From an uncultured virus (IMG/VR IMGVR_UViG_3300020048_000030) (lineage: Duplodnaviria; Heunggongvirae; Uroviricota; Caudoviricetes): a stretch of DNA of 64,000 nucleotides. Positions within the stretch are counted from its first letter, which is position 1, and every line of letters starts with the position of its first letter. The notes beneath the pieces were generated by a model. That model searched no databases. It was not told the DNA's origin and saw nothing but the letters and a program-made list of their open reading frames with translations. The DNA lies in IMG/VR virus record IMGVR_UViG_3300020048_000030; one strand, written 5' to 3'. A program made the position numbers and the translations under genes. Below are positions 1,332 through 56,522 of the stretch, piece after piece.

Positions 1332-1551
1332 GATGAATCTTATTTATTTTTAATGCCCTTGAGCATTTGTCACAATAAATCACTAATTCACTTCCATTTG
1401 ATATAACATAATTCTCTATAACTATTTGACTACTAATAACATTCCAACCATCTGGGATTTTTGGTGCAAATTCTTCATTAACTTTACAAATTGTATATTC
1501 ACTAAATATAACACACTTATCACAAACAAAACCACCTAATTTAAATCCCAT
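1294..1551 (-). CDS. small zinc-binding hypothetical protein
   Basis: Two CDKC motifs; C-terminal RALKINKI tail. Confidence 0.65.
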   Translation of the reverse strand: MGFKLGGFVCDKCVIFSEYTICKVNEEFAPKIPDGWNVISSQIVIENYVISNGSELVIYCDKCSRALKINKIHHDLQKKLKNDKH

Positions 1552-1852
1552 TTATTTTTCTTTTAATAGTACTTATCTTTTTACTTCTTATTTCTTCAAT
1601 TGGTTTCAAATATATTACAAATAATGATTTTTCTTTTATTGTATATATAAAGGATATGATCTCAGAATATTCCTCTTTTATTGATTTTCTTAAATTTTCA
1701 ACATGATAATTATCAACACCTTTTGATACTTGAACTTGAATACCTGTAAATTCTTCTTTTATATAATCAATACTACAATTTGAATATATTGTTATGGGAT
1801 ATACCATATAATTTTCAATAAAATCTATTAATTCTTTATGTTCTTTTAACAT
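1541..1852 (-). CDS. hypothetical protein with RxxKI tail
   Basis: ORF track; ends IRSKKISTIKRKI. Confidence 0.65.
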   Translation of the reverse strand: MLKEHKELIDFIENYMVYPITIYSNCSIDYIKEEFTGIQVQVSKGVDNYHVENLRKSIKEEYSEIISFIYTIKEKSLFVIYLKPIEEIRSKKISTIKRKINGI

Positions 1853-2549: not shown

Positions 2550-2753
2550 TTATTTAATTTTATTTGGGTGAACAAAATAGCATAAGTTCTTTTTAGCTTT
2601 TTTTAATGAATCAAATGTATCTTGACAAGCAGCACCAGCCATACTATTTACCCATGCATCTACCCACCACCATCTGAATAAAAAATGTTTTTGTTGAATA
2701 ACATAAGATACCCTACCATCAACATATTTTCTTTTTACTATTCTTGTTTTCAT
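2550..2753 (-). CDS. hypothetical protein
   Basis: ORF track; overlaps upstream gene by 4 nt. Confidence 0.65.
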   Translation of the reverse strand: MKTRIVKRKYVDGRVSYVIQQKHFLFRWWWVDAWVNSMAGAACQDTFDSLKKAKKNLCYFVHPNKIK

Positions 2754-2953
2754 TTTAATTTACCTATTATTTTATTTAATTTATCTTTTCTGAAATATAT
2801 TTCATCTTCCTTTTTATGCATTACACACCAATCTTCATATGTTAATTCAGACATTTTTTTAATATCTTCTAAATTATCTATACGTTTTAGTGTTTCTTGA
2901 TAATAATATCTAGTTTCACGCATATATCTGTTATATTCAACCTTGTACTTCAT
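2750..2953 (-). CDS. hypothetical protein with RxxKL tail
   Basis: Ends FRKDKLNKIIGKLK. Confidence 0.65.
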   Translation of the reverse strand: MKYKVEYNRYMRETRYYYQETLKRIDNLEDIKKMSELTYEDWCVMHKKEDEIYFRKDKLNKIIGKLK

Positions 2954-3093: not shown

Positions 3094-3342
3094 TTAATCA
3101 TTTTTAGTTATTGTTATTGTGTTTGTAATATATATTATTGGTTTTGGTATTGATACATGAAAATTATATGTACTATTATCATAATTAATATCAATTGTTA
3201 TACCCTGATATTTTTTTTCTAACCAAAATTTTATTCCACTGGGTATAGTATTATATAATGATTCAGTAATATCTTTTTCAATTTGATGAATTAATCTATG
3301 ATACTTAATCCTTTGTAATTTATATGTTATATCTTCTTTCAT
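3094..3342 (-). CDS. hypothetical protein
   Basis: ORF track; N-terminal KLQRIKYHRL. Confidence 0.6.
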   Translation of the reverse strand: MKEDITYKLQRIKYHRLIHQIEKDITESLYNTIPSGIKFWLEKKYQGITIDINYDNSTYNFHVSIPKPIIYITNTITITKND

Positions 3343-3872
3343 GGTTTATAATGTACTATTGTTACTGTCATATCACTTGAACATTCATCTCTTATTATTG
3401 TATGAATTCTATCCCAATCTCCACCAGCTAAACCGGCTCCGATTAATGGTAATCCTAAATGTTTTCCTTTAAAAAGATAATTCATCTTTCTCATACATAA
3501 TGTAATTGCTTCATAATCTACTGGAGTAGAAACACCATCTTTATGATTTTTACCATAATGATATTGTGTATAGGCATTTACCACAATAAGTTCTTTACCT
3601 ATGGATTTTAAATAATCATCAGTAACATAATGTGACATAGCTATACCAATTGGTACTTGATGAATTGATTCATAATTTATAGTTCCAAGTTTATTAATAT
3701 CACCTTTATAATTTGGGCCTTCCATTAAAAATTCATCACATCCAAATGCTTTTGCCATCTGTGGAGCAATACCCGCACCCATTTCGCAAAAACAATTCAC
3801 GCCATGTGCAATAACATCAAAGTAACCTTCTTTTGCGAGTTTGATAAGATCTCCATCTATTTGTTTCATCAT
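3339..3872 (-). CDS. macro domain (Appr-1-p processing) protein
   Basis: GDL...IAHGVNCFCEMGAGIA, VNAYTQ, PLIGAGLAGGDW. Confidence 0.88.
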   Translation of the reverse strand: MMKQIDGDLIKLAKEGYFDVIAHGVNCFCEMGAGIAPQMAKAFGCDEFLMEGPNYKGDINKLGTINYESIHQVPIGIAMSHYVTDDYLKSIGKELIVVNAYTQYHYGKNHKDGVSTPVDYEAITLCMRKMNYLFKGKHLGLPLIGAGLAGGDWDRIHTIIRDECSSDMTVTIVHYKP

Positions 3873-4017: not shown

Positions 4018-5221
4018 ATGAAAACATATCCAATAAGAATAAATCCTACATTAGAACAAATGAAAATGTTAATAGAATTATCTTCTATTAGAAAGGATAT
4101 ATGGAATAAATTACTTGATATACAACAACAATCTTATGAAACAAATAAATCTATATTTAATAAGTTTGATTTAAATAATATGTTACCTGAATTAAAAGAA
4201 CAATATCCAAGTTGGAAAAAATTAAATTCAAAAGCAGTTCAAACTATTGCTACTGAATTATATGGTTCTTATAGATCATTTTTTAATTTAATTAAAAAGG
4301 ATAAAACAGCAAGACCGCCGAATAAAATTGAAGATGATAATAATTTTCATACTATAACTTGGAACCAATCTGGATGGATATTACAACCAAATAATATAAT
4401 TATTATTAATAAGATACCATTTAATTATAAATCAAAAGTTAGTCTTGAAGATTTAAAGATTAAAGAAATGAGAATTAAATTTGTAAGAAATAAATGGTTA
4501 GTTGATTATGTTGTAGAAGAAAATGTAGAATATAAAGATAAAATAGAGATAGAGACAAAAATATTAGCAATAGATTTAGGTTTAGATAAGTTAGGTGTAG
4601 GAATAGATAATAAAGGAAAGGCTATATTTATGCCAAATAAATCTAAAAAGATAAATCATTATNNNNNNNNNNAAGAAAAATAATAGAAAATTTAAAAAAT
4701 TAAAAAAGACACTAAATAAAATCTACTACAAAAAAAATGAACAAATAAAACATACTCTTCATACACAGAGTAGGATGTTATCGTGTATGAACTATAATAC
4801 AATTATAGTTGGTGATCTTAAAGTAAAAAAATTGATGGCAACAGAAGGTGTAAATGAAAAGAAAAAAGGAATAAGAAAATCATTTCATCAGTCAAATATC
4901 AATCAATTTTTACAATACTTATCATATAAATGTCAATCAAAAAACACAAATCTTGTTAAAATTGGTGAACAATATACAACACAATTAAATTGTTTAACTG
5001 GAAAAATGTTTGATAAAAAAGTAGAATTAAAGGATAGACAAGTAGAATTAAGTAAAGACATCATTATTGATCGTGATTTAAACTCAGCCATAAACATATT
5101 AAATCGTTGGTTTGAACATCACCTTGCTGGTATGAACCAGCCTTTGGATATTTCCAGAGTTCTTCAAATTTATAATTTGAAGGAAACCACTACACCTTTA
5201 AGTGTAGTTGGTAGTTCATAG
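4018..5221 (+). mobile_element. tnpB: solo IS200/IS605-family TnpB RNA-guided endonuclease (one gene spanning a scaffold gap)
   Basis: KTYPIRINPT N-terminus, RuvC-I ILAIDLG, IIVGDL, YTTQ, RuvC-III DRDLNSAINI; frame is open from the N-gap (4673) into ORF 4775; 3' hairpin and GTAGTTCA right end. Confidence 0.85.
5183..5218 (+). ncRNA. 3' end of putative TnpB omegaRNA / element right end
   Basis: ACTACAC-ctttaa-GTGTAGT hairpin followed by TGGTAGTTCA, overlapping the tnpB 3' end. Confidence 0.6.
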
Positions 5222-5222
5222 T

Positions 5223-5837
5223 TTATTTTTTAGTAATAAGTTGTTCAAATTTTATTTTAATTGGTAAATATTTTTCTTTGTAATATTTCCAATCAGATAC
5301 TTCATTATCATAATCTTCTTTTAACATATCCCAAATATCATTTGCAGAAGAAAAATCTGTAATCTTTCCATTCTCAATTATTTGATGGAAAAATTGTAGT
5401 ATTCTAATGGAATGAAAAATTCCTTTTGTTCCCCTATATAAATCACCATCAATAATTTTATCTTTTGCTTTATTAAATGAATTATAAGATTGTGTCATAC
5501 CTTTATAAATCAACATGTCAGGTTTTAATTGAAAAGTTTTATCCGGTAAAACTAATTTTTCTTGTAATTTAGTATCTGGTGGTGCATAAATACATTCTAA
5601 ATATTGCATTTGATATTCTTTTAATCCATCAAGAAACACACTTGGAATGTGAACATGAATATTATATTCTTTATGTCTTATTTCTTGTTTCTCCATCATA
5701 GATGAAGCAAGAACAATAAAATCATAATCAGAAAATTCATTTGCAGTTCCATAAACATGTGAACCAAACATATAGATATTCTTTACTTTTAAAGGATGTA
5801 TCTTTATTATTTCAATAATTTCTTTAGGTGTTATCAT
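5223..5837 (-). CDS. Pol-beta-superfamily nucleotidyltransferase
   Basis: YMFGSHVYGTANEFSDYDF (GS...DxD). Confidence 0.82.
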   Translation of the reverse strand: MITPKEIIEIIKIHPLKVKNIYMFGSHVYGTANEFSDYDFIVLASSMMEKQEIRHKEYNIHVHIPSVFLDGLKEYQMQYLECIYAPPDTKLQEKLVLPDKTFQLKPDMLIYKGMTQSYNSFNKAKDKIIDGDLYRGTKGIFHSIRILQFFHQIIENGKITDFSSANDIWDMLKEDYDNEVSDWKYYKEKYLPIKIKFEQLITKK

Positions 5838-6011
5838 TTTATTTTATTTATAATCTTATTTAATTTCTGTTATCTTTTTCTTAATTTATAATAATCAGAT
5901 TGTAATATTAATTTTACTCCAATTTGTCTATCATTTGGATTATTCATATTATAAATAGTTTGTTCAGTAAAATTATTATCAATAAAATAATCTACTAAAT
6001 CTTTTTGATAA

Positions 6012-6215
6012 TTATATAATTTTTTTTCGTATTTTATTTATAATTTTATCTAATTTCCTTTTTCTCAATGAAGTTTTTAAATAATTAGATTCTAAAATAG
6101 ATGTTCTACCAGCAACTTCAAATCTTGATAAGTCATCTAAGATTTCTTTTTCACTGATATCTTTACTCATAAGTAAATTAATAAGTCCTATTTGATAATC
6201 TAATAATTCTTTCAT
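6012..6215 (-). CDS. hypothetical protein with RxxKL tail
   Basis: Ends LRKRKLDKIINKI. Confidence 0.65.
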   Translation of the reverse strand: MKELLDYQIGLINLLMSKDISEKEILDDLSRFEVAGRTSILESNYLKTSLRKRKLDKIINKIRKKII

Positions 6216-6216
6216 A

Positions 6217-6387
6217 TTATTTAATTTTTACAAAATGTTCCCATCTATATTCAGTTTCATTATGATTTTTAATATGGAAAACTAACCCCATTTCTCCATC
6301 AATACGATAAACCATTTTCCAACTACCATCACCTTTATATCCAACATATTTAGGTGGATATTCTGACGAATCTATTATATTTTTCAT
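6217..6387 (-). CDS. small hypothetical protein (56 aa; not in ORF track)
   Basis: Manual translation MKNIIDSSEYPPKYVGYKGDGSW...; ATGA overlap with the upstream gene. Confidence 0.6.
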   Translation of the reverse strand: MKNIIDSSEYPPKYVGYKGDGSWKMVYRIDGEMGLVFHIKNHNETEYRWEHFVKIK

Positions 6388-6785
6388 AAATTTTTATTTA
6401 TCTTTTCTATCTTTTTTCTTCTAAGATAATCATTTTTTAATTTAATATATTCTTCATCTTCAAATAAATTATCACCCCAAGCACCTTCACCCATATAAAT
6501 TTTGTCTCTCTGTTTAAGTTTAACTACTTTTTTAAGAAAACTTTCAAGGTCAAAATTATTCATTGAAGTATAACACCAAATAGCAAAATCATCTTCTTTA
6601 ATATTCCATTCTTCATAATATTCATAGAATGGTTCTTTACCTTCTTGTTTTAATTTTTTATCTATTTCCATACCTATATTGATATGGTCATAAATCATTT
6701 CTTTTTGTTTATCAGTAATTTTATCTAGCTGAATTATAAAACTACTTGAACTACTATTACTTACAAAACCATTTCTTATTTTCAT
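6384..6785 (-). CDS. MKIRNGFVSNSSSSSF-leader family protein
   Basis: Start corrected to 6785 by identity with the start of 9211..9819; RRKKIEKI tail. Confidence 0.75.
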   Translation of the reverse strand: MKIRNGFVSNSSSSSFIIQLDKITDKQKEMIYDHINIGMEIDKKLKQEGKEPFYEYYEEWNIKEDDFAIWCYTSMNNFDLESFLKKVVKLKQRDKIYMGEGAWGDNLFEDEEYIKLKNDYLRRKKIEKINKNL

Positions 6786-6790
6786 TTCTT

Positions 6791-7147
6791 TTAATTGTTT
6801 TTTATTAATTGAGATTCTATACCATCTATTACACCCCATTCATCAACATCTGGTGATATATCCTTTTTAATTATATGTTCTTCCACCATCAATTTTACAA
6901 ATGATTGAACTTGTTGGTAATTCATAGAAAATTCATTTTCTAAAATTGACCAAAATTTTCTATAATGACAACCAAAATATCCATTTTCTAAATTATAATC
7001 AAATAATAAAACATTATTATGTTTATAATATTTTTTATTAGGATAAGAAGGATGATAGTATTCTACTAAATTAGTAAAAATATCATAACAATACCTTTCT
7101 TCCGGGTGCATCCTATGATATTTTATTTTTTTAATTTTGTCTAACAT
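6791..7147 (-). CDS. hypothetical protein
   Basis: ORF track; N-terminal KIKKIKYHRM. Confidence 0.65.
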   Translation of the reverse strand: MLDKIKKIKYHRMHPEERYCYDIFTNLVEYYHPSYPNKKYYKHNNVLLFDYNLENGYFGCHYRKFWSILENEFSMNYQQVQSFVKLMVEEHIIKKDISPDVDEWGVIDGIESQLIKNN

Positions 7148-7635
7148 TTATCTTTTAATTTATTTATTTTTATTCTTCTTAAATAAACTTTAACAAATTT
7201 ATGATTATCAATTTTCTCTTTGTCAATATGTGTCATACAATTTAAAGTACAGACACATTCATTATTACCAAATGATACATTTTTTATTAATTTACATGAA
7301 TCATATTTATCTCTATCCCAAAAATCAAAATCTTTATGTGGACAATTTGATTTTATAAATTCTATTAATTTTTGTTTTTCTTTTTTTCTAATATAAATAT
7401 CTTTTGCTTCACTATAACTTATTTTATGTGTAAAATATCTTTTATCTATTCGTTTAATAATAATATTATTTTCTTCATCTTTTAATATATAATCATCATA
7501 ATCTTTATTATAATTCATAATTATTAATTCATGACCTTTTGTAATAGTTACATATTCACGTTCAATATCTTTAATTAGTACAACAATCTGACCAATTAAA
7601 TATTCATCATTATTACTATTTATTGGTATTATCAT
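7141..7635 (-). CDS. hypothetical Cys-containing protein with RxxKI tail
   Basis: SH3-like N-terminus (inferred), Cys cluster, ends LRRIKINKL. Confidence 0.65.
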   Translation of the reverse strand: MIIPINSNNDEYLIGQIVVLIKDIEREYVTITKGHELIIMNYNKDYDDYILKDEENNIIIKRIDKRYFTHKISYSEAKDIYIRKKEKQKLIEFIKSNCPHKDFDFWDRDKYDSCKLIKNVSFGNNECVCTLNCMTHIDKEKIDNHKFVKVYLRRIKINKLKDKC

Positions 7636-8426
7636 ATTTTACTTTTGATATTACTAATTTTCTTAAATCTTTCTTTTTCTAATTTGTGTTCACTATTGAA
7701 TTTCTCAACCCCCCTTGGTATTACACCATCTTTAGTTTCTAATATATAACTTTTTTTCTTCATTATAAATATACCAGGGTGATATTCAATTTTATATGGT
7801 AATTGTAATGGTAGTATATATTTATTTAGTATTACTTTATCTAAAAAGTCAAAATAAATTACATCAGTATCAATATATATTAAGTTATTTGGATAATTAT
7901 CAAATAAATCAATTAATACATCTTTATAATAAGGAATAACTAAATTTAATCCATCTACTTTTATTATAGAATTATTATTTGTACCAGCGCTATATGTATA
8001 ATTTATTATAAAATTCAATAATGATTTATTATTTCCCATTAATTTATCTTTAATTGATTCTTTATTTTCAACTAAAAATTTAAATAAAACACCAAATTCT
8101 TTAATATTAAATTTTAATAATTCTTGTTCCCATAATTTAATTATAATATTTGGATATAAATGTATAAATTGAACTTCAGTAATATCCTTCATCCATACAT
8201 TAGTCATTTTTTTATTTAATAAAATAACTCCTGAATCAAAATTATTTTTTTCTCTAATATGAAAATCTTTAACTTGTTGATAATCAAAGAAATTATCCAA
8301 TAGTGATTTAATAATAGTGTGATAAATTTTTAAATTATTTGGATTATACATCATAAAGTTATAATCTGAAAGATGTGAATTATTCAGAACCTTAACTACA
8401 TTATCAATATTTAAAACTTCTATCAT
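7632..8426 (-). CDS. compact, degenerate family-B polymerase palm-like protein
   Basis: EVQFIHLYPNII (motif A-like), FIINYTYS (motif B-like), IYIDTDVIY (motif C), KKKSYI, RGV. Confidence 0.72.
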   Translation of the reverse strand: MIEVLNIDNVVKVLNNSHLSDYNFMMYNPNNLKIYHTIIKSLLDNFFDYQQVKDFHIREKNNFDSGVILLNKKMTNVWMKDITEVQFIHLYPNIIIKLWEQELLKFNIKEFGVLFKFLVENKESIKDKLMGNNKSLLNFIINYTYSAGTNNNSIIKVDGLNLVIPYYKDVLIDLFDNYPNNLIYIDTDVIYFDFLDKVILNKYILPLQLPYKIEYHPGIFIMKKKSYILETKDGVIPRGVEKFNSEHKLEKERFKKISNIKSKI

Positions 8427-8432
8427 TTAAAT

Positions 8433-8624
8433 TTATTTTAATTTAGCATATGATCTAATAGTCATTAAACCAAATGGTGTTAATTCTTCCACTTCTTTTA
8501 TACACTGATTAATAGAATAGGATTTATGACCTGTTAAAATATATGGTTTATCTTTATCTATTTTTTTATTATTTAGGTCATCTAATACTAATTGTTTATA
8601 CTTAACTAATTTTTCTTTTCTCAT
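8433..8624 (-). CDS. hypothetical protein
   Basis: ORF track. Confidence 0.55.
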   Translation of the reverse strand: MRKEKLVKYKQLVLDDLNNKKIDKDKPYILTGHKSYSINQCIKEVEELTPFGLMTIRSYAKLK

Positions 8625-9199
8625 ACTGTTATTTTTATTGAATTCATTATCTTTTTAAGTTTGTGTTCTCTTTCTAAATCTTTGATTATATCCAATTTTG
8701 GGTGAATTATAATATCATCTTTAATATTTAAAGACTTATCTTCTACTTGATAATCATGAATTGTAAAAACACTTCTATCATAATTTGGAAAACCACTAGT
8801 TAATCTTATAAGTAAATTAAATATTTTATTATGTGCATTAATTTCATTATCATTTAATATGTTAAATATTTTTCTTCCAAATGTAAATAACATTATTTTA
8901 TCATTTAATTGTGGATTAATAAAATCATTAATAATTTTCACATAAGTATGATATCTTGTTGTTCTATGAAAATCTTTAATTTCTTTATACCTATTTAAAA
9001 ATTGTTCTTTTTTATTAAATAATTGTAAATCATCATCAATACTAAACATTGATTGTTTACCATTTTGAAAAGTAACCCAATATTCAGAACTTCTAAAAAA
9101 ATTCTTTTTAAAATCATCATTTATTTTCACAAATGCAATTTCTGATAAATAAATATCATTACTACTAGATAATGTAGTATACTTATTATATTTTTCCAT
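8621..9199 (-). CDS. truncated T4 gp32-like ssDNA-binding protein paralog
   Basis: RYHTYVKIINDFINPQLNDKIMLFTFGRKIF and SGFPNYDRSVF match the recalled gp32 core (YWANILVVKDP..PENEGKVFKYRFGKKI; SGFSNYDESKF). Confidence 0.72.
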   Translation of the reverse strand: MEKYNKYTTLSSSNDIYLSEIAFVKINDDFKKNFFRSSEYWVTFQNGKQSMFSIDDDLQLFNKKEQFLNRYKEIKDFHRTTRYHTYVKIINDFINPQLNDKIMLFTFGRKIFNILNDNEINAHNKIFNLLIRLTSGFPNYDRSVFTIHDYQVEDKSLNIKDDIIIHPKLDIIKDLEREHKLKKIMNSIKITV

Positions 9200-9210: not shown

Positions 9211-9819
9211 TTAATGGTGACTAATTTTAGACATGGTAATTGGGTTAAGAATGTCACTATGTTCAATAAATGACATAAGTGAACCATTATTATCACTATA
9301 ACTTAATGTTAAAAATATATCAGTATTTAATGATTGTTCTTTAATAGATTTAATTATAAGTTCGCCCATCTTATTACCAATTTCTTCTTCTTCTTCATAT
9401 AAACTATTAATCAATCCTTTACTAGATTCATCATTTTTTTGTTCACCATATGCATTAGTTATATCTCTAGCAACCATTTTATATCGTCTTTTAAGCTTAT
9501 TATATTCTTCCTTATTAGAAGAAGTAATTTTACTATCATATTCATCAAGACTATATTCTGATATAGAAAATTCTTCACCACTAATACTTTCAATAGAATT
9601 ATTTCTATTTTGACCTAATTCATCAATTACATCATTATAAATAATTTCAATTATTCTTCTTGTTGGAAAAGCTTCATCATCATAATAAGTAAGTACCATA
9701 GGATCTTCATCACCTAAAAGCATTTTCTTCATATCTTGATATGAAGTAGGATAATGTGGAAGTTTAAGTATAAAACTACTTGAACTACTATTACTTACAA
9801 AACCATTTCTAATTTTCAT
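9211..9819 (-). CDS. MKIRNGFVSNSSSSSF-leader family protein
   Basis: Shares the leader with 6384..6785. Confidence 0.75.
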   Translation of the reverse strand: MKIRNGFVSNSSSSSFILKLPHYPTSYQDMKKMLLGDEDPMVLTYYDDEAFPTRRIIEIIYNDVIDELGQNRNNSIESISGEEFSISEYSLDEYDSKITSSNKEEYNKLKRRYKMVARDITNAYGEQKNDESSKGLINSLYEEEEEIGNKMGELIIKSIKEQSLNTDIFLTLSYSDNNGSLMSFIEHSDILNPITMSKISHH

Positions 9820-10114
9820 ATATTTTATTTTTTAATTTTATTAATTTTTCCTTTCTAATTTCATTATTAGACCAATCTTTACAAGGTATTTTCTTTTCCA
9901 TTACACTAAAGTAATAAGATGATGATCCAACTTTATTTGGCAAACCATTATAATGTATTTTACAATATTGTGAATCATTATAATCATAATAATTATCACA
10001 AGTGAAACAATGTCTATTAGATGGATTAAATACACATTTTATTTCATGTACTTCTATCTTATCCTTATTAATATCAACTGTAATACAATATTCACATTTC
10101 CAAACTAATTTCAT
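9809..10114 (-). CDS. Cys-rich zinc-binding protein with RxxKL tail
   Basis: CEYC, HEIKC, CFTC; ends IRKEKLIKL. Confidence 0.7.
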   Translation of the reverse strand: MKLVWKCEYCITVDINKDKIEVHEIKCVFNPSNRHCFTCDNYYDYNDSQYCKIHYNGLPNKVGSSSYYFSVMEKKIPCKDWSNNEIRKEKLIKLKNKIYEN

Positions 10115-10154: not shown

Positions 10155-10562
10155 TTAAGAAATATTTTTAATCATTTCTTCAAATCGCCAGAAAATTCTT
10201 GAAAGAGCTTCATCTCTATCAACAAATCCAGCCCAATCTACTTCTTTTTTTTCTAATTTATTCTGATTAATTACAATTTCTATTTTAGGTTCTACAATAA
10301 AGTAATATAATATTTTATATACTTTTCCCTTTTCATTAGTATATTCTATAATATTAGGTTTCTTTTTGTTTTTAACATCTTTAACCTCTATTTTAATCCC
10401 TATTTCTTCTTTTGTTTCTCTTATTGCTGCATCTAATAAAGATTCACCTTCTTCTACTTTTCCTTTAGGTATTGTATAAGTACCATACCATGGTGCATTT
10501 GTTGGGTGTGCAAGTAATATTCTATTTTGTTGAACAATAAGTAGTCCGGCTGAAATTTCCAT
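10155..10562 (-). CDS. NUDIX hydrolase
   Basis: Nudix box PKGKVEEGESLLDAAIRETKEEIG. Confidence 0.92.
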   Translation of the reverse strand: MEISAGLLIVQQNRILLAHPTNAPWYGTYTIPKGKVEEGESLLDAAIRETKEEIGIKIEVKDVKNKKKPNIIEYTNEKGKVYKILYYFIVEPKIEIVINQNKLEKKEVDWAGFVDRDEALSRIFWRFEEMIKNIS

Positions 10563-11126: not shown

Positions 11127-12620
11127 TTATAATTTTTTTAAGATTAAATCACCTTCAGTATCTTTATATGTAGAATGTTTAACTGACCTTTTTGGAATCC
11201 AATCAGTATCTTTTTTAGTTGTATCAATATAAACTTTAATTGCATCATCTTTAAATAGATAACCATCTTTTTTTGATAAGACTGTATCTTTTTTATAATA
11301 GTAAGTATCATTATAATCACAAAATACCATATTATCATTTATATATGTTTGAGTAGCCCAACCATTATAATGTGTTAAATATACTGCATCATCTTTTGGT
11401 AATTCAACTTTATCACCTATTGTTGTAGTTACAATGAATTCATCATATCTATCTTTTGGTACCCATTCTTTATAATACTTAATAAATATTGCATCTTCTT
11501 TTTTTCTAATTTTATCAATATCATTTGTATATCTATCAAATCCAATTTCACACATTACATATTTACTACTAATTTCATATATATTTATATATTCATTATA
11601 CCTATCACTCCATTCACAATCTCTTGGTTCACCTGATGTTTCAACTAATCTAACATTAGATATTTCTACATTAGAAATTACTTTTTCTTCTTGGTCTAAA
11701 TATTGTAATGTGTCTAAATATGGATAATATCTATTTAAGGTAATATCACATACTTCTAATGTTCTAAATTTAGAACTACTATCTTTAGGATCAATTATTT
11801 TTTCTTCACCATAAGTTTGATATGATTTATATAACCATTCATTTTTCTTAGCATAATCAATAAAAAAATTAACTTGGTAATCATCAACAGTATATATTCT
11901 ATCCATAAATATTCTATTTTCTGGTAAATCTAAATGCCATACTAATGCCCTACCTATTATTTTTTCTTTTTTATCATCTTCAAATAAAATAAGCATCTGA
12001 ATTTTTTCATTTTTTGCATAAAATTCAATATAATCATCACAATATTCAGCCATACAAGAATTACCTAATGTTGTATCTCTACTATCTTCACTATAATTAT
12101 CATTTTTATACCAATAAACTATATCAGAACCAGAAACCAATTCAAATAAATTATTAATATTGTCTTTATCAAATGCTGCTTTATATTCATTAACAAATGA
12201 TTCTATATCTTCACCTGGTTTACCACTATCTGCAAATTCATTATCAAATATTTTTTTAACTAATTTTCCAACTTTAATTGTTGACCTATATTTATTCCAT
12301 AAATCATTATTAGAATGATTATATTTAATAAAATGTAATAATTTTACATCATTTTTTTCTATATTATTATAATTTGCTAAATATTCAATAATTTTAGGTG
12401 ATGTTGTAAAACTAACTTTATCATTATCCTCAGTTACATCTATATATGTTATAGGTTTATTTTCATTTTCACTATTCATAATTTTTTTAGCAATAGGATG
12501 GTCAATTTTCATCATTATCCTAAGAAATTCTTCACTAAAAAGAAATGGCATTGTTCCATCTGATACACTTTCTAATAAAAAATTAAATAAAAAATCATTA
12601 TAACCATTAACTCTAATCAT
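11127..12620 (-). CDS. SCM/GRALxW/FMDRIY family protein, paralog 1
   Basis: GNSCM, IIGRALVW, FMDRIY, YPYLDT; shared with three other ORFs. Confidence 0.8.
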   Translation of the reverse strand: MIRVNGYNDFLFNFLLESVSDGTMPFLFSEEFLRIMMKIDHPIAKKIMNSENENKPITYIDVTEDNDKVSFTTSPKIIEYLANYNNIEKNDVKLLHFIKYNHSNNDLWNKYRSTIKVGKLVKKIFDNEFADSGKPGEDIESFVNEYKAAFDKDNINNLFELVSGSDIVYWYKNDNYSEDSRDTTLGNSCMAEYCDDYIEFYAKNEKIQMLILFEDDKKEKIIGRALVWHLDLPENRIFMDRIYTVDDYQVNFFIDYAKKNEWLYKSYQTYGEEKIIDPKDSSSKFRTLEVCDITLNRYYPYLDTLQYLDQEEKVISNVEISNVRLVETSGEPRDCEWSDRYNEYINIYEISSKYVMCEIGFDRYTNDIDKIRKKEDAIFIKYYKEWVPKDRYDEFIVTTTIGDKVELPKDDAVYLTHYNGWATQTYINDNMVFCDYNDTYYYKKDTVLSKKDGYLFKDDAIKVYIDTTKKDTDWIPKRSVKHSTYKDTEGDLILKKL

Positions 12621-14283
12621 TGAAATCTATTCTTTTTTGTCCAAATAATTCATCTTTCATACTAGAATCATATTCATAATACCATTTACCTTTATATTTA
12701 AATAATTTATCTTTATCCCATATTATATGTTTATATGCAGTATTCCAACTATCATTACTTAAATTAATGTTAACAAAATAATCACCATAATCATTTTTAT
12801 CAAAATAATAAGTATCACCATCTTTTTCATATTCAATAACACTATGACCAATTTCATCATTATGTCTTACATCATATGATTCTTTTACATCATCTATACT
12901 ATCATTATCTGCACCTTCTGCCATAGGTATTGAATTATCATTGGTAATATAATCATTATGATATTCAGACCAAATTGAATCATCTTGTTCTAAATAAGTA
13001 TCTTCATAATCAGACCAATTCAAATGTCTTTCAACATATCTTTCTGTTGCATACCTACCTAAATTCGATATATAAATTGCATCATCATTTGTACGATAAT
13101 CATCACCTAACTCACAATATGTGACTTCATCTTCATCAAAATACTCACCATAATATTCAATATATATTCTATCATCATTTTCATCTTCTACGTCTGTATA
13201 ACCACCACCAGTATCTTCTAAAAAATATATTGTTTCATCATGACTACTTGGTTCTTTATTTGTTAGATAATTACTATTTACATAAAACCATTTTAATGTG
13301 TCCATATATGGATATTGATGTGTACTTGCTGGATGAAATGTTTTTAATGTTCTTAATGTTTTACTATCTGAAAAATCTTTATTCATTGGATCAACAATAT
13401 CAGCAATATTACTACTATTTTGATTCTTTTTATATAACCAACCTTCTTTTTCTGCATACTCTTTAAATAATGTCATATCTGTTTCATAACGATAATAAAT
13501 TCTGTCCATAAATGTTCTTCCACTTGGATATGATAATTCCCAAACTAACGCTCTACCAACAATTTTATCTTCAAATCCTTCTCTATCAGAAAATAATATT
13601 AATAATTTAACATCATTTTGTGCATAAAATTCAATATAATCTGAACAACTAGAATGTCTCATACAAGAAGTAGCTAATGTACCAATACTATCACCATTTT
13701 CATTCCTACTATCATACATATTATAATTATAATAATTAACAATATCATCATTACTAACTAATTTAAATCTATTATTTGATGAAGACCTTTTTGCGATTAT
13801 TGTTTGTACAAATGATTCAATATCTTCACCTGGATTTCCACCACTAACAAATTCTTTAGGAAATACTTTATTTATAAATGCACCAATTCTTATAGATGCT
13901 CTATTTTTAAACCAAAAATCTTGTAAATAAGTATCCGGTCCCGGTGTTGTTGTTACCATTGATTTAACAGTTTTTTCTTTATCTAAATCTTTAATTTGAT
14001 CCCCATATTGTTTCAATATATTATCATAAACTTTATTAGAATTAACTAAAGAAAAATAATTATCTTTTTCTTCATCAAGGTCAACAAAAGTTACTTTTTC
14101 TTCCTTTCTACTTTTATCAAGTTCTAATATTCTTGTAGAAATTGTATGATTGATTGATTGTAACATTTTTCTTAATTTATCACTTATTACAAATGGTAAT
14201 TCACTTACACCATTACCCCTTTGTGTAACATTTTCAAATATTAAACCAATTAAAAAATCATTGTAATCTTTTACTTTATTCAT
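12613..14283 (-). CDS. SCM/GRALxW/FMDRIY family protein, paralog 2
   Basis: TSCM, IVGRALVW, FMDRIY, YPYMDT; acidic aromatic C-terminal region. Confidence 0.8.
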   Translation of the reverse strand: MNKVKDYNDFLIGLIFENVTQRGNGVSELPFVISDKLRKMLQSINHTISTRILELDKSRKEEKVTFVDLDEEKDNYFSLVNSNKVYDNILKQYGDQIKDLDKEKTVKSMVTTTPGPDTYLQDFWFKNRASIRIGAFINKVFPKEFVSGGNPGEDIESFVQTIIAKRSSSNNRFKLVSNDDIVNYYNYNMYDSRNENGDSIGTLATSCMRHSSCSDYIEFYAQNDVKLLILFSDREGFEDKIVGRALVWELSYPSGRTFMDRIYYRYETDMTLFKEYAEKEGWLYKKNQNSSNIADIVDPMNKDFSDSKTLRTLKTFHPASTHQYPYMDTLKWFYVNSNYLTNKEPSSHDETIYFLEDTGGGYTDVEDENDDRIYIEYYGEYFDEDEVTYCELGDDYRTNDDAIYISNLGRYATERYVERHLNWSDYEDTYLEQDDSIWSEYHNDYITNDNSIPMAEGADNDSIDDVKESYDVRHNDEIGHSVIEYEKDGDTYYFDKNDYGDYFVNINLSNDSWNTAYKHIIWDKDKLFKYKGKWYYEYDSSMKDELFGQKRIDFND

Positions 14284-15873
14284 TTAAAAATCTATTCTTT
14301 TTTGTCCTATTAATTTATCTTTTTTCTCAGGATTATCATTTAAATATTTCTTACCCTTATATATAAATATTTTATCTTTATCCCATATCTTATGTACATA
14401 TATATTCTTATTTAATTTTAAACTAAATACATTTTCAAAATTATCATCATCTTCTTTACTAAAATAATAGTAATAACCATTTTTATCCATGTATCTAATA
14501 AAATAATTAGTATAATTACTATCTATATAATCTAGATTATCAAAATTTATTTTATTAATATCATCTACATTAGATGCACCAGGATTAAATACTTCAATTG
14601 AATTATCTGTTGATATATAATCACCATGATATTCTGAATAAGTTGATTCATCATTTTCAATATAAGAATCTTCTATATCTGAATATACCATATTATTATC
14701 AACATAATTTTGTGTTGCATATTCACCATATTGTTCAATCCATATAGCTTCATCAGAAGGTACACTATCATTACCTAATTCACAATATATATAATCAGCA
14801 TCGACGTCGTCATCTCCACCATTACTAGTATAACCACCACTAGTACTTTCTAAAAAATAATAATCATCATCAAGTACAGTATTAGATAAACAACCAATTT
14901 CATAATAAAAATATTTCATTGTATCCATATAAGGATAAAATCTATTTTTTTCAAAACTATCTACTGTTTCTAATGACATTCTTGATCGTTCATTTGTTGT
15001 TGAATCAACTATTTCTTCATCACTATACATATTTTGTTCATACTTATATAACCAATTATTTCTTTTTGCATATTCTTTAAATATTAATGTATCACTATTT
15101 TGTATAGAATAAATTCTATCCATAAATTTCCTATCAACTTCTTCACCATCTATTTTTACTATATCCCATAATAATGCTCTACCAATTATTTTATCTTCTT
15201 CATTTTCTGACATTAATATTACAAGTTTAACTCCTTTATTATTTGCATAAAAATCAATATAACTATGACATTTGTTATAACGCATACAAGAACTACCTAA
15301 TATTGATCCAGATGAATTAGATGAATATGATGATTCATTATAATATTTTTTAATATCTTCACCTTCAACAATTTTAAATCTTGAAAATGTATCTTCTTTT
15401 TTCTTTATTTCAAATTTAACTAAATTGGTAAATGATTCTATATCTTTACCTGGTTTACCAGAAGCATCATATTTATTTGGATATATTTTACTTATTAATT
15501 TACCTATTTTAATAGAACTTCTATATTTAGTCCATATTTCAGGTTTATCTAATCCAAACATTTTAAGATTAGAACTAGTATTTAAATATTCTTTATAATT
15601 AGGTAATTCTTTTTCAGTATAATCTATTAATTTAGATGGAATTGTATAGGTAAAATTACTAATCTCTTTATCATCCAAATCAATTAATGTTGCCTTATCA
15701 CTTTTCACATTATTATAACTATCATTAATCTCATATAATTCATATGCAATAGGGTGTTCTATATTTGACAATAATTCTTTTAATCTGTTACTGATAATAA
15801 TAGTAGTTTCTTTACCGTTACTTTCAAATATTTTATTAAAAATATAATCTTCAAATGTATTTAATTTTTTCAT
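14284..15873 (-). CDS. SCM/GRALxW/FMDRIY family protein, paralog 3
   Basis: GSSCM, IIGRALLW, FMDRIY, YPYMDT. Confidence 0.8.
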   Translation of the reverse strand: MKKLNTFEDYIFNKIFESNGKETTIIISNRLKELLSNIEHPIAYELYEINDSYNNVKSDKATLIDLDDKEISNFTYTIPSKLIDYTEKELPNYKEYLNTSSNLKMFGLDKPEIWTKYRSSIKIGKLISKIYPNKYDASGKPGKDIESFTNLVKFEIKKKEDTFSRFKIVEGEDIKKYYNESSYSSNSSGSILGSSCMRYNKCHSYIDFYANNKGVKLVILMSENEEDKIIGRALLWDIVKIDGEEVDRKFMDRIYSIQNSDTLIFKEYAKRNNWLYKYEQNMYSDEEIVDSTTNERSRMSLETVDSFEKNRFYPYMDTMKYFYYEIGCLSNTVLDDDYYFLESTSGGYTSNGGDDDVDADYIYCELGNDSVPSDEAIWIEQYGEYATQNYVDNNMVYSDIEDSYIENDESTYSEYHGDYISTDNSIEVFNPGASNVDDINKINFDNLDYIDSNYTNYFIRYMDKNGYYYYFSKEDDDNFENVFSLKLNKNIYVHKIWDKDKIFIYKGKKYLNDNPEKKDKLIGQKRIDF

Positions 15874-16434: not shown

Positions 16435-17643
16435 TTAAGAATGGTTTTTTAGAAAATCAGTAACATATTTTACATATTCTGTATCATTTGGTGATTTTTC
16501 AATTACTCTTTTTACCGCAGGAATTATTTCCCCTTGCTTTGCTATCTCTACTTTACAACCGGGATATACTTCATTTTCAATAATCCAACCAAGATTATAT
16601 AAACTAGCATGTTTAACAATTGTACCATCTAATTCAACTGGTTTAAATAGTGCTACTGGTGTATATTCACCATCCTTACCTAATTTCCACAAAACATTTT
16701 CAAGGTAAGTAATTACTCTATTAGGTGGGAATTTAACTGCACACGCGTAATGTGGATGATGGTTATTAGCTCCCAGAGTATCCCAATATTCAGATGAAAA
16801 TGATAATACAATACCATCTAATGCATACTTTGAAGTTGTTCTATAATCTTTAAATTTAGGATATATATTAGCAAAAAAATCATCAACACTAACTGTATCC
16901 ATATTAAATATTTTTTGAAAACCTAAACTAGAAAGGATTTCTAATTGATTTTTTGGTTTAATAGTATCTGAACCATTGTTAATAGTAATGTGATATGCAA
17001 CAAAATCAATATCCTTCATAATATTAATATCTATTTCTTCTTTACCAATAACACCAGCTAACCAATTTCTTGGATTATCAACCTTATTAGGATCAGAATA
17101 TTTCTTTTCCCATAATTCAGTAGAAATAATAACTTCACCCCTAATGGTAATTCTATCATGAATTAGATTACCTAATTTATTAGGAACAATAAGTTTCATA
17201 TGTTCTGTTCTATCTAAACCACCTAATTCATTTCCCCTTGTAATACTTTGTGTTAAAACACCATTAAGATAAATCAATTCCATTGAATTACCATCAAATT
17301 TAGGTGTACAGTTTACAACAGTGTTTGGAACTTTATTGAAAAAATTAGAAATATCAATAGGAAATACTTCAATATCATTATCCATTGATGCTTGGTACTT
17401 TTTGAGTGAAAGCATAGGATATTGATGTTGAAAACGAATACCTCTTTCACCAACAGATAATTCATCAATTAAATCATATTTTTTAAGAATTTCCATATTA
17501 GGAGAACCTAATACAAATGGAAGTAATGAACCAAGTGATTTAAGTTCATCTTCTAATTTATCAAAAGTTACATCAGATACTTCTGTTTGTCCATTGTAGT
17601 ATAAATACTTCCATTTTAAATAAGTTCTTTCTTTCTGATACAT
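16435..17643 (-). CDS. ligA: NAD-dependent DNA ligase (adenylation + OB domains only)
   Basis: YYNGQTEVSDVTFD, PMLSL, PKFDG (KxDG), TRG, RGEV, NPRN, DGIV, AVKF, ASLYN; start set at MYQKER, downstream of a TATCTTTG motif. Confidence 0.9.
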   Translation of the reverse strand: MYQKERTYLKWKYLYYNGQTEVSDVTFDKLEDELKSLGSLLPFVLGSPNMEILKKYDLIDELSVGERGIRFQHQYPMLSLKKYQASMDNDIEVFPIDISNFFNKVPNTVVNCTPKFDGNSMELIYLNGVLTQSITRGNELGGLDRTEHMKLIVPNKLGNLIHDRITIRGEVIISTELWEKKYSDPNKVDNPRNWLAGVIGKEEIDINIMKDIDFVAYHITINNGSDTIKPKNQLEILSSLGFQKIFNMDTVSVDDFFANIYPKFKDYRTTSKYALDGIVLSFSSEYWDTLGANNHHPHYACAVKFPPNRVITYLENVLWKLGKDGEYTPVALFKPVELDGTIVKHASLYNLGWIIENEVYPGCKVEIAKQGEIIPAVKRVIEKSPNDTEYVKYVTDFLKNHS

Positions 17644-17701
17644 AATATTTTTATTAAGATTTTGTTCTACAAAGATAATACAATTATATAAAATAAACAA
17701 A

Positions 17702-17860: not shown

Positions 17861-17955
17861 TTTACAAAGATAAATATAAAATATGATAATATAAAATAAA
17901 TATATAATATAAAATAAANNNNNNNNNNNNNNNNNNNNNNNNNNNNNNNNNAAAA

Positions 17956-31249: not shown

Positions 31250-32539
31250 ATGTCAACTAAAAGAAAAACAACTGAACAATTTATTGTAGATGCTAAAAAA
31301 GTTCATGGGGATAGATATGATTATTCTTTAGTGGATTATAAAAATAGTTCATCTAAAATTAAAATTATATGTAAAGAACATGGTGTGTTTAAACAGACAC
31401 CAAATTCACATTTACGTGGAAGAAAATGTCCTATCTGTTATGGTACACATAAAAACACAACAGAAGAATTTGTAATTAATGCAAATTTGATTCATAAAAA
31501 TAAATATGATTATTCATTAGTTAATTACATTACTAATAAAATTAAAGTTGAAATTATATGTAAAGAACATGGTGTGTTTAAACAGACACCAAATTCACAT
31601 TTACGTGGAAGAAAATGTCCTACTTGTAGTTTATTAGAAAGTGGAACAAAAAGAACTAAAACAACTGTAGAATTTATTGAAGATGCTAAAAAAATTTATG
31701 GAAATAAATATGATTATTCTTTGGTTGATTATATTCATAATAGAAAAAATGTTATAATTATTTGTAAAGAACATGGTAAGTTTGAACAAACACCAAGTCA
31801 ACATTTAAGAAATATAAACTGTCCTTGTTGTTCTAATAGTAAAAAATCAAATACTAAAGAATTTATTGAAAAATCAAATAAAATACATAACAATGCTTAT
31901 GATTATTCTTTAGTAGACTATAAACATAGTGAAAAAGAAGTTATAATTATTTGTAAAGAACATGGTGAATTTAAACAAATACCTTATTTACATCTAAAAG
32001 GACATAAATGTAAAAAATGTAATGGTTATGATATATTAAATACTGATGATTTTATAAAAAAAGCAAAAAAAATACATAATGATAAATATGATTATTCTTT
32101 AGTTGATTATAAAAATTCTGAAATAAAGATAAAAATAATATGTGAAAAACACGGTGAATTTCCACAGTCACCAAAAAATCATATTTATAATAAACAAGGA
32201 TGTCCTATTTGTAATATTAATAAAAATGAATTATTAATAAAAAATAATTTAGATAAAAATAATATTAAATACGAACATCAAAAATCATTTGATGGATGTG
32301 AATATGTAAAACCTTTACGATTTGATTTTTATCTACCTAAATATAATACTTGTATTGAATTTGATGGAATTCAACATTACATTCCAATTGAATTTTTTGG
32401 TGGTGATAATGCCTTAAAATTACAAAAAATTAAAGATAAAATCAAAACAGATTATTGTATAAATAATAATATTAAATTAATCAGAATAAAATATGATGAA
32501 AATATAGAAGAAAAATTAAATTTTATCTTTTCATTATAA
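31250..32539 (+). CDS. zinc-repeat (DUF723-like, 5 repeats) + PD-(D/E)xK/Vsr-like putative homing endonuclease
   Basis: YDYSLVxY..IICxxHG.F.Q.P..H...CPxC repeats; C-terminal FDFYLP..CIEFDGIQH. Confidence 0.85.
   Translation: MSTKRKTTEQFIVDAKKVHGDRYDYSLVDYKNSSSKIKIICKEHGVFKQTPNSHLRGRKCPICYGTHKNTTEEFVINANLIHKNKYDYSLVNYITNKIKVEIICKEHGVFKQTPNSHLRGRKCPTCSLLESGTKRTKTTVEFIEDAKKIYGNKYDYSLVDYIHNRKNVIIICKEHGKFEQTPSQHLRNINCPCCSNSKKSNTKEFIEKSNKIHNNAYDYSLVDYKHSEKEVIIICKEHGEFKQIPYLHLKGHKCKKCNGYDILNTDDFIKKAKKIHNDKYDYSLVDYKNSEIKIKIICEKHGEFPQSPKNHIYNKQGCPICNINKNELLIKNNLDKNNIKYEHQKSFDGCEYVKPLRFDFYLPKYNTCIEFDGIQHYIPIEFFGGDNALKLQKIKDKIKTDYCINNNIKLIRIKYDENIEEKLNFIFSL
31362..31622 (+). repeat. 72-bp perfect direct repeat (31362-31433 / 31551-31622) within the endonuclease
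   Basis: AAATTATATGTAAAGAACATGG...AAAATGTCCTA identical in both copies, 189 bp apart. Confidence 0.9.
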
Positions 32540-38024: not shown

Positions 38025-38912
38025 ATGCCAAAAAGAAAAACAACAGAACAATTTATTAATGATGCCAAAAAAATACACAATAATGAATATGATTATTCAT
38101 TAGTAAATTATAAAAATAATAAAATTCAAATAGAAATAATATGTTCTATACATGGTATATTTCTACAAAGACCAAGTGATCACTTATCAGGATGTAAATG
38201 TCCTTATTGTTATGGAACACCAAAGAAAACAAACGACCAAATTAAAAAAGATTTTTTAAAAATACATAATAATCAATATGATTATTCATTAGTAGATTAT
38301 AATGGTGTTTTCACTAAAATAAAAATAAAATGTACCAAATGTAATAATATATTTGAACAAACACCACACGATCATCTTAAAGGTCAAGGTTGTCCAAAAT
38401 GTATAGGTAAAAATAGAAGTATTGATGAATTAAAAAATATATTAAATAATATACATAATAATAAATATAACTATGAATTATTAGATAATACAAATACTAA
38501 AATAAAATATAAAATAGTATGTCCTATTCATGGTGAATTTTTACAATACCTATATCACCATATAAATGGTGAAGGTTGTCCAAAATGTAATGAATCAAAA
38601 GGTGAAAAAGAAATAAGAAATATATTAGAAAAAAATAATATAAAATATGAGTCACAAAAAACATTTCCTAACTGTAAACATAAACAATTGTTGAAATTTG
38701 ATTTTTATTTACCTAACCATAACATAATAATTGAATATGATGGTGAACAACATTTTAAACCAAATAATTTTTTTGGTGGTGATGAATCATTTAAAAATAC
38801 CCAAATAAGGGATAATATTAAAAATGAATACTGTAAACAAAAAAATATAAATTTGTTAAGAATAAAATATGATGAAAAAATAATTGATAAACTATCCCAA
38901 TTCTTTTTCTAA
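38025..38912 (+). CDS. zinc-repeat (3) + PD-(D/E)xK putative homing endonuclease
   Basis: Same architecture as 31250; ESKGEKEI, FDFYLP, IEYDGEQH. Confidence 0.85.
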   Translation: MPKRKTTEQFINDAKKIHNNEYDYSLVNYKNNKIQIEIICSIHGIFLQRPSDHLSGCKCPYCYGTPKKTNDQIKKDFLKIHNNQYDYSLVDYNGVFTKIKIKCTKCNNIFEQTPHDHLKGQGCPKCIGKNRSIDELKNILNNIHNNKYNYELLDNTNTKIKYKIVCPIHGEFLQYLYHHINGEGCPKCNESKGEKEIRNILEKNNIKYESQKTFPNCKHKQLLKFDFYLPNHNIIIEYDGEQHFKPNNFFGGDESFKNTQIRDNIKNEYCKQKNINLLRIKYDEKIIDKLSQFFF

Positions 38913-41823: not shown

Positions 41824-41897
41824 GCAAGAAAGGTGTAATGGTGCACAGTTTACTTCCAGTAAGATGGGGACAGTTCGAATCTGTTATCTTTGCTCAA
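41824..41897 (+). tRNA. non-canonical tRNA-Gly(TCC)-like element
   Basis: GCAAGAA-AG-GTGT AATGGT GCAC-A-GTTTA CTTCCAG TAAGA-TGGG-GACAG TTCGAAT CTGTT-ATCTTTGC-T-CAA; imperfect acceptor and anticodon stems. Confidence 0.65.
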
Positions 41898-41908
41898 ATA
41901 TTACTTAT

Positions 41909-56480: not shown

Positions 56481-56522
56481 TAAAAAACANNNNNNNNNNA
56501 AACAAAAATGAAAAAAATGAAA

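Follow-up and report, generated by a model that had tools for sequence, protein, structure and literature searches.

The 64,000-nucleotide (nt) stretch of the uncultured virus record IMGVR_UViG_3300020048_000030 that was analysed here, hereafter the window, carries two small genes on its minus strand that code for cut-down relatives of replication proteins: a 264-amino acid (aa) protein resembling the palm of family B DNA polymerases (PolBs), named mini-PolB, and a 192-aa protein resembling the core of the T4 single-stranded DNA (ssDNA)-binding protein gp32, named mini-gp32. We propose, with moderate confidence, that both genes code for functional, cut-down paralogues that are extra to the canonical replisome and that the two proteins act as non-catalytic, DNA-binding accessories, independently of each other. 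As described in the original prediction, which was made from the sequence of the window, a single small open reading frame (ORF) separates the two genes, and the three minus-strand ORFs lie head to tail:

8621–9199, minus strand: mini-gp32, a putative 192-aa paralogue of the gp32 core with an oligonucleotide/oligosaccharide-binding (OB) fold, no Cys, no acidic tail and a C-terminal ERExKLKKI helix (the RKxKL tag described below)
8433–8624, minus strand: 63-aa ORF between mini-gp32 and mini-PolB, no family match; its N-terminus MRKEKL is an exact DNA match to the tail-motif word described below
7632–8426, minus strand: mini-PolB, a predicted 264-aa stand-alone PolB palm and fingers module with a C-terminal helix at residues 248–263

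A palm and fingers module of family B polymerases

As a single sequence, the 264-aa ORF gave nothing usable in Pfam, PHROG, NCBIfam and PADLOC scans. With a nine-sequence profile made of this ORF and eight homologues, 36 of the 37 listed solved-structure matches were PolBs (best E-value 1.1e-7), and polymerases made up 55 of the 56 sequences listed for an 85-sequence profile, which reached a best E-value of 1.1e-13. The profile alignments pair FIHLYPNII with DFRSLYPSII of motif A, NFIINYTYS with KILANSVYG of motif B, YIDTD with YSDTD of motif C and KKKSY with KKKYA. The AlphaFold2 model of mini-PolB has a predicted local distance difference test score (pLDDT) of 95.3 and a predicted template modelling score (pTM) of 0.89. 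All matches listed in a Foldseek search of this model against the PDB are PolBs (top E-value 4.3e-8), and VIA-align superposed model residues 16–242 on residues 335–610 of the archaeal Tgo PolB (Z 12.4, root-mean-square deviation 4.0, 205 residues). The chain aligns solely to PolB residues from about 335 to 610/620, and a match to PF03104 was absent from the Pfam scan. Because the alignment spans just Tgo residues 335–610, the modelled protein is best described as a PolB palm and fingers followed by the first thumb helix, without the N-terminal/exonuclease domain and without the thumb proper.

The active site of mini-PolB is altered at two of its three motifs. Motif A reads EVQFIHLYP, which places Gln86 at the position of the metal-binding Asp of DxxSLYPS, and the motif-A strand (E78–87) is present in the model. 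In motif B (N138-FII-N142-YT-Y145-S146, compared with KxxxNSxYG), Asn142 and Tyr145 are kept, but the Lys is replaced by Asn138 and the Gly by Ser146. Motif C, YIDTD at residues 184–188, is intact (D186 and D188), and KKKSY follows at residues 223–227. The likeness to a PolB palm, the replaced motif-A Asp, the retained YIDTD and the missing exonuclease domain had all been noted in the original prediction and are borne out here; its description of motif B as eroded holds for the Lys and Gly residues but not for Asn142 and Tyr145.

An exhaustive profile search returned 385 representative clusters at an E-value of 1e-3 or better, 178 of them at 1e-10 or better, and the best 150 listed clusters all have lengths of 121–461 aa. 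On the strength of these sequences, we take mini-PolB to be a member of a large, old and unnamed phage family. Among 155 members, the most conserved positions are N142 (147 members), G146 (128) and K/R138 (124) in motif B, D188 (148), D186 (122) and K225 (122) in motif C and the KKKY segment, and Y91 (142) and P92 (131) in the motif-A region. The position of the motif-A Asp is variable, with E in 42, S in 41, T in 25, D in 13, Q in 8 and N in 5 members, and it is non-acidic in 100 of the 155. In the window protein and its three nearest relatives, which are the most degraded of the family, this position is occupied by Q, R, K and R and the motif-B Lys by Asn. The 85-sequence profile scored best against archaeal PolB (1.1e-13), followed by phi29 (8.5e-8), Pol alpha (7e-7), E. 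coli Pol II (4.5e-3) and T4 gp43 (0.12), and hhalign comparisons of mini-PolB with the phage's own PolB halves aligned 15–22 motif columns with probabilities of 3.5% and 2.4%. Judged by these profile comparisons, the mini-PolB family is nearer to PolBs of the archaeal type than to the T4-type polymerase of the phage itself and would not be a recent copy of the latter.

Homologues are found in the 735-kb uncultured phage LR756501 (456 aa, at 4995–6365 of its locus, E-value 1.3e-53) and in cultured phages, namely as ORF12 of Flavobacterium phage MaF61 (253 aa, E-value 1.6e-23), where motif A reads KLEF with a Glu, and as gp255 of Chryseobacterium phage MA9V-2 (E-value 9.7e-13), where it reads FIEL, again with a Glu. 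The gene of phage MA9V-1 is 82.6% identical to that of MA9V-2, and the MA9V-2 homologue lies near MazG-like and SLOG genes. MaF61 and MA9V-2 each have a canonical PolB as well. Profile searches of the genomes of the split-PolB phages Lak-C1 and PAU found no mini-PolB homologue, and since the family is present in MaF61, whose PolB is unsplit, and absent from these two phages, it does not track the polymerase split. Scans for related loci returned only two viral loci and one contig of a metagenome-assembled genome (MAG). The latter, JBBAEW010000012.1 (41.5 kb), is binned to a Saccharofermentanales MAG, holds a 37% identical copy that is the sole match in the species-genome collection, and is possibly a mis-binned phage contig. 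The ESM Atlas contains viral clusters of similar length, one of them automatically named PolB-domain protein; 31% of the proteins in that cluster carry PF00136. In the BFVD, the proteins A0A1G4GQI8, A0A219YCA8 and A0A2I7SB81 (241–291 aa), whose sources are Klebsiella phage PMBT1, Aeromonas phage 65.2 and one unnamed entry, match the mini-PolB model with a Foldseek probability of 1.0 and a template modelling (TM) score of about 0.5; stand-alone PolB-like modules may therefore be more widespread in T4-like phages. Fold matches in the same database also include herpesvirus UL8-type subunits. Keyword searches and the portions consulted of PMC7544198, PMC7824862 and PMC11348598, supplements being outside their scope, gave no report of a minimal PolB without thumb and exonuclease domain as a widespread phage family.

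A gp32-core paralogue beside canonical replisome genes

The 192-aa ORF matches phrog_224, a single-stranded DNA-binding protein (SSB) family, with an E-value of 1.5e-7, and a profile of its own family listed T4/RB69 gp32 chains as four of five sequences (E-values of 1.7e-7 to 1e-6), the fifth being an unrelated protein (E-value 0.22). The AlphaFold2 model has a pLDDT of 85.6, and all six Foldseek matches with an E-value of 0.001 or lower are T4 or RB69 gp32. Profile and Foldseek searches, which the original prediction had named as a check, support both folds. The protein contains no Cys; the gp32 zinc stretch CPVCQY is aligned to DDDLQLF, and the His/Cys3 zinc subdomain is missing. So is the acidic C-terminal domain: the last 30 residues comprise 7 K/R against 4 D/E and end in EREHKLKKIMNSIKITV. 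The absence of the zinc-binding Cys residues and of the acidic tail agrees with what had been predicted. Only 15 residues, which are not basic, precede the first core strand of the model; in T4 gp32, the N-terminal segment carries a basic cooperativity motif. With T4 numbering transferred to the profile alignment, mini-gp32 retains residues that align with the aromatic and basic ssDNA contacts of gp32.

The mini-gp32 family consists of 15 proteins of 123–224 aa, one of which carries PF08804. Common features of their alignment are a MTPIYNQY-type start, a YVKIIxDxxNPQLEGQIMIFxFGRKI block and an ERExKLK helix, and no Cys is conserved. Four of the five IMG/VR contigs with mini-gp32 hold a second gp32 frame of 328–334 aa elsewhere on the contig; two of those contigs have near-identical scores and are probably the same phage, and the fifth contig is only 65 kb long. 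One canonical gp32 that was read out from a mini-gp32 contig has 324 aa, Cys ligands and an acidic end, and the tails of the canonical paralogues are acidic, of the DDLFDF or DDDDD type. LR756501, MaF61, MA9V-2, Lak-C1 and PAU have no mini-gp32 and only a long gp32. Sequence comparison thus points to mini-gp32 as a smaller family than mini-PolB and as a true paralogue that accompanies a canonical gp32.

The window is very AT-rich (GC content 0.18–0.28), holds no tRNA gene along its 64 kb and, as judged from its genes, is a fragment of an AT-rich huge phage that is kin to LR756501. Its phage-type genes code for an NAD-dependent ligase, an SbcC-like ATPase, a head-tail adaptor-like protein and the N-terminal half of a canonical PolB:

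38892–40409, minus strand: canonical PolB N-half, 505 aa, with exonuclease domain and motif A DFASLYP; it breaks off within the first fingers helix and does not reach motif B

This N-half shares 55% identity, across 96% of its length, with that of the 735-kb uncultured phage LR756501/LR756503, and has remoter matches in 460–640-kb uncultured phages, Chryseobacterium phages MA9V-1/2, Sphingomonas phage PAU and Lak megaphages. LR756501 codes for a 504-aa N-half and a 566-aa C-half (KTVLNATYGAF, YGDTDS) that lie about 116 kb apart if the genome is circular. The same split is found in MA9V-2 (507- and 425-aa frames), PAU (505 and 404 aa) and Lak-C1, and the PolB of MaF61 is unsplit, in one 1001-aa frame. 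In Lak-C1 (MK250029.1), the C-terminal part of PolB (390995–393786) is divided between a 280-aa frame, which contains one in-frame TAG, and a separate 329-aa frame some 2 kb away; this suggests an interruption or stop-codon recoding. No C-half follows the N-half in the window, and a tblastn search of the window with the LR756501 C-half gave a best E-value of 0.26; because the LR756501 C-half has no counterpart within the 64 kb, that of this phage presumably lies outside. The gp32 of LR756501 is 351 aa long, has Cys ligands and terminates in the acidic stretch DDLFDFEADDK. Since canonical versions of both proteins, a split PolB and a gp32, are present in relatives, the two mini genes would be extra paralogues, in line with the original prediction, which had seen them as additional cut-down copies outside the replication genes.

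Several observations bear on whether the two mini genes belong together. In four long metagenome loci, the 10 kb on either side of mini-gp32 contain no mini-PolB, and mini-gp32 is absent from the LR756501 locus and from the two viral loci with mini-PolB. The complete LR756501 genome contains mini-PolB and lacks mini-gp32. Mini-PolB was found in none of the five viral contigs with mini-gp32 (65–501 kb), which is weak evidence because these contigs are estimated to be 9–70% complete. The nearest relative alone may hold both genes, as homologues with 77% and 62% identity (P0004 and P0012) are both recorded on a longest contig of 173,637 nt. A complex prediction for mini-PolB and mini-gp32 scored 0.00 against a mark of 0.32, which speaks neither for nor against binding. 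As far as these genomes and contigs indicate, the two are independent accessories and, outside close relatives, no conserved or co-evolving pair.

The RKxKL tail and its neighbourhood

Many otherwise unrelated small ORFs carry, near their stop codon, a basic motif that reads roughly [EY]-[YIL]-R-K-x-K-[LI]-x-K-[LI]. It was searched for with a regular expression written post hoc, after the data had been seen, and within the last 25 residues, which bounds its distance to the stop. In the window, 8 of 84 ORFs match; all eight are among the 26 ORFs below 11.1 kb, with none among the other 58, and one of 687 internal 25-residue segments matched as a control. Three mini-gp32 loci of 20 kb each have the tag in 17 of 59, 23 of 67 and 11 of 55 ORFs (internal controls 0/156, 1/164 and 0/154), and no tag was found in seven mini-PolB or cultured-phage loci. 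The carriers include an OB fold, a PolB palm, membrane proteins, Cys-rich proteins and tandem 60–100-aa paralogues, and a Pfam scan of 12 tail-bearing small ORFs found no family. The tail of mini-PolB is a looser match and falls on the helix whose counterpart in the PolB alignment is the first thumb helix. The original prediction had pointed to an RxxK[LI] tail common to both proteins. This tail is real but unspecific, being present on many unrelated neighbouring ORFs, and since dozens of unrelated small proteins carry it, it is no evidence of a pairing of mini-PolB with mini-gp32. Further tagged ORFs in the window are:

9809–10114, minus strand: 101-aa Cys-rich ORF, C-terminal RKEKL tag
7141–7635, minus strand: 164-aa ORF, tag YLRRIKINKL
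6384–6839, minus strand: 151-aa ORF, tag YLRRKKIEKI; its N-terminus is KIRNGFVSNSSSSSF, and it is a paralogue of 9211–9819
6012–6215, minus strand: 67-aa ORF, tag LRKRKLDKII, followed by a 174-nt intergenic gap
2750–2953, minus strand: 67-aa ORF, tag FRKDKLNKII
1541–1852, minus strand: 103-aa ORF, tag IRSKKISTIK

One might suppose that this tail is not a protein tag but a signal in RNA or DNA, for instance an A-rich promoter or translation-initiation element that serves the gene that follows. The DNA word AGAAAAGAAAAATTA, allowing up to two mismatches, occurs in 19 copies against 5.0 +/- 2.4 expected, including one in the intergenic spacer just upstream of the start of the NUDIX gene and one right after the start codon of the 63-aa ORF, and in 48 of 58 cases the motif lies 20–49 nt before the next start. 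We consider this explanation unlikely. The Arg of the tag is 11–13 residues from the C-terminus in 43 of 59 cases, within a search limited to the last 25 residues, and the tag is kept in the 10 of 58 cases in which the next start is 70–270 nt away; because the distance from Arg to stop is fixed and the tag is kept when the next start is far, a protein-level tag is favoured. In addition, the ERxxKL of the mini-gp32 family retains R177 and K180 in at least 90% of members, even where about 30 further residues follow, and the residues flanking the tag (F-I/L-S..E-Y) and the hydrophobic spacing are conserved at the protein level.

In the equivalent block of LR756501 (110–3920 of its locus), at least seven adjacent ORFs end in a different, acidic motif, DPYGEE[DE]W[DE]. 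The 456-aa mini-PolB homologue of the same phage carries this motif internally (DIDPYGEENWEEK) and has an acidic DLFQGLFEE tail. A literature search for 'DPYGEE' in phage papers found none.

Around the small-ORF block of the window lie repair and house-cleaning genes at 1846–2481, 3339–3872, 5223–5837, 10155–10562 and 16435–17700, which code for a Tpt1/KptA RNA 2'-phosphotransferase, a phosphatase, a Pol-beta-type nucleotidyltransferase, a NUDIX protein and the NAD-dependent ligase. An IS605 OrfB/TnpB-like gene at 4018–5221 is in two pieces, HTH_OrfB_IS605 and a Cas12f1-like TNB. The paralogues at 9211–9819 and 6384–6839 (both minus strand), which have the N-terminal stretch KIRNGFVSNSSSSSF in common, match phrog_7397 (function unknown) with E-values of 1.2e-13 and 5.6e-5. 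Two pairs of large paralogues gave no family match: 11127–12620 (minus) and 33476–35077 (plus) have a common N-terminal region and a central GKPGEDIESF block, and 12613–14283 and 14284–15873 (minus) both end near GQKRIDF. The window also encodes many homing-endonuclease-like genes, among them five DUF4379/DUF723 repeat proteins grouped around the PolB N-half (31250–32539, 38025–38912, 40924–41811, 41890–42858 and 54432–55322), and a C5 cytosine methylase at 61989–63998 with an intein that contains a LAGLIDADG domain. Four short runs of N are present, at 4663–4672, 17919–17951, 46315–46324 and 56490–56499.

Possible functions and comparison with known systems

We hypothesize that mini-PolB is most likely unable to polymerise, because it is without the motif-A carboxylate, the motif-B Lys and the thumb, and that it may still grip a primer end and/or a nucleotide, because its family keeps the motif-B Asn, Tyr and Gly, the second motif-C Asp and the KKKY hairpin. 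Of the roles considered in the original prediction, a non-catalytic one is the better reading of mini-PolB, as the motif-A Asp and the motif-B Lys are missing. The protein could be a non-catalytic accessory or end-binding factor, like herpesvirus UL8 or the inactive half of Pol epsilon. For mini-gp32, we propose an ssDNA binder that would be uncoupled from the normal gp32 partners, because the zinc site, a long N-terminus and the acidic tail are all missing, and the new basic C-terminal helix with the RKxKL tag would redirect the protein.

Several points weigh against this proposal. The ssDNA contacts of mini-gp32 depend on T4 numbering carried over to the alignment, and the canonical gp32 and the PolB C-half of this particular phage are presumed from its relatives only. 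The strong conservation of motifs B and C across the mini-PolB family is what would be expected of an enzyme; 55 of the 155 members have a Glu or Asp at the motif-A position, and 38 of these 55 retain the full remaining motif set. A substitute carboxylate may lie near D188. Motif-based calls of inactivity have been wrong before, and primer-independent PolBs polymerise efficiently without the first motif-C Asp, according to the part of PMC7544198 available to us.

The same observations could be taken to mean that mini-PolB is an active nucleotidyltransferase, that is a minimal polymerase, a terminal transferase or a primer-extension enzyme with a non-standard active site, perhaps helped by mini-gp32. 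N142, K/R138, D188 and KKKY are conserved in the family, the acidic motif-A residue is found in the proteins of MaF61 and MA9V-2 among others, and primer-independent PolBs offer a precedent. Activity of the window protein nonetheless seems distinctly unlikely, as the motif-A Asp is replaced by Gln in this protein and by Arg or Lys in the three proteins closest to it, the motif-B Lys and Gly are lost as well, there is no thumb to hold duplex DNA, and 100 of the 155 members are without an acidic motif-A residue. Even less credible is the idea, raised in the original prediction, that mini-PolB is the missing partner of the split polymerase and gives motifs B and C to the N-half at 38892–40409. 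It is true that this N-half stops before motif B and that the window has no canonical C-half, but in relatives whose PolB is split in this way, a canonical C-half is encoded elsewhere (566 aa in LR756501, and likewise in MA9V-2, PAU and Lak-C1), and mini-PolB has a motif-A strand of its own, lacks the thumb and resembles the halves at the motif level only, with 22 columns and a probability of 3.5% in the hhalign comparison with the LR756501 C-half. It is furthermore present in MaF61 with its unsplit PolB and absent from PAU and Lak-C1, and we rejected it as a supplier of motif C.

Defence systems sense phage SSBs and polymerases, and the two proteins had been suggested to be immune decoys, which mimic the polymerase and the SSB and occupy host sensors of phage replication proteins without activating them. 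Consistent with this, both are non-canonical copies alongside the real proteins, both lie within a block of small, fast-evolving accessory ORFs, and the partner-binding parts (acidic tail, thumb and exonuclease domain) are gone. The data neither support nor contradict a decoy function, which we regard as very unlikely. Neither gene could be tied to immune sensing. There is no PADLOC or other defence-related match, there are no conserved defence-related neighbours, and mini-PolB and mini-gp32 do not travel together. If the proteins imitated a trigger faithfully, they should themselves set off the sensor. With its 385 clusters, mini-PolB is old and conserves nucleotide- and primer-binding motifs, not just a surface, and because it is more like archaeal PolB than the phage's own polymerase, it would be a poor mimic of the latter.

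Returning to the proposal of two independent, non-catalytic accessories, one might speculate further that the mini-PolB family is the phage counterpart of UL8 or of the inactive half of Pol epsilon, holding primer ends or nucleotides and either organising the replisome or soaking up primer ends or toxic nucleotides as a counter-defence, and that RKxKL is an undescribed address tag that takes up to a third of the small accessory proteins, mini-gp32 included, to one partner or place. This wider proposal is rather unlikely to hold as a whole. Eukaryotes, archaea and eukaryotic viruses offer known cases of inactivated polymerases that have been turned into scaffolds. Three cultured phages, Flavobacterium phage MaF61 and Chryseobacterium phages MA9V-1 and MA9V-2, carry a mini-PolB gene, which makes the role of the family directly testable. 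The gp32-core paralogue illustrates how a hub protein of the replisome can lose all of its partner-binding parts and gain a new tail, and the RKxKL tag may offer a way into understanding how the many uncharacterised accessory genes of huge phages are organised.

The closest parallel to mini-PolB is UL8, an inactivated PolB that serves the herpesvirus helicase-primase and works with the viral SSB, as described in the portion of PMC8187027 available to us. According to the same portion, UL8 is polymerase-derived, has lost the catalytic Asp and occurs beside an active PolB in a large dsDNA virus; mini-PolB likewise combines a PolB fold and the loss of the catalytic carboxylate with, in its relatives, a canonical PolB alongside. 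UL8 differs in its length of about 750 aa, in a PolB architecture that is retained in full and in the loss of KKRY and almost every motif, whereas the 264-aa mini-PolB consists of palm and fingers only and keeps the motif-B Asn and Tyr, the motif-C DTD and KKKSY; the tie to a helicase-primase is shown for UL8 only. The C-terminal half of Pol epsilon, archaeal PolB2 and poxvirus F12 also have a PolB fold with degraded motifs and scaffold or other roles (PMC2669801, PMC4304020 and PMC7544198, in the parts at hand). In contrast to mini-PolB, these proteins are, in the same parts, full-size and keep an (inactive) exonuclease domain and the thumb, and none is a stand-alone protein of about 260 aa or comes from a phage. 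The split gp43-type polymerases belong to the same phage lineage and have PolB cut at the fingers tip, as in the window, LR756501, MA9V-2, PAU and Lak-C1, and a Pfu polymerase that was engineered with a split at this place is functional, according to the part of PMC3061061 available to us. Mini-PolB differs from such halves by having a motif A-like segment, motif B and motif C in one chain and no thumb, and by a likeness that is confined to the motifs. Mini-gp32 has the same OB fold as the T4/RB69 gp32 core (1GPC and 2A1K; Foldseek E-values of 1.9e-10 to 1e-7, TM scores of about 0.5–0.6), and the aligned block corresponds to gp32 residues from about 67 to 184, including YxxxxxD..P...G....FG.KI and GF.NYD.S.F. 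It departs from T4/RB69 gp32 in having no His/Cys3 zinc site, a short N-terminus and a basic RKxKL helix that replaces the acidic C-terminal domain.

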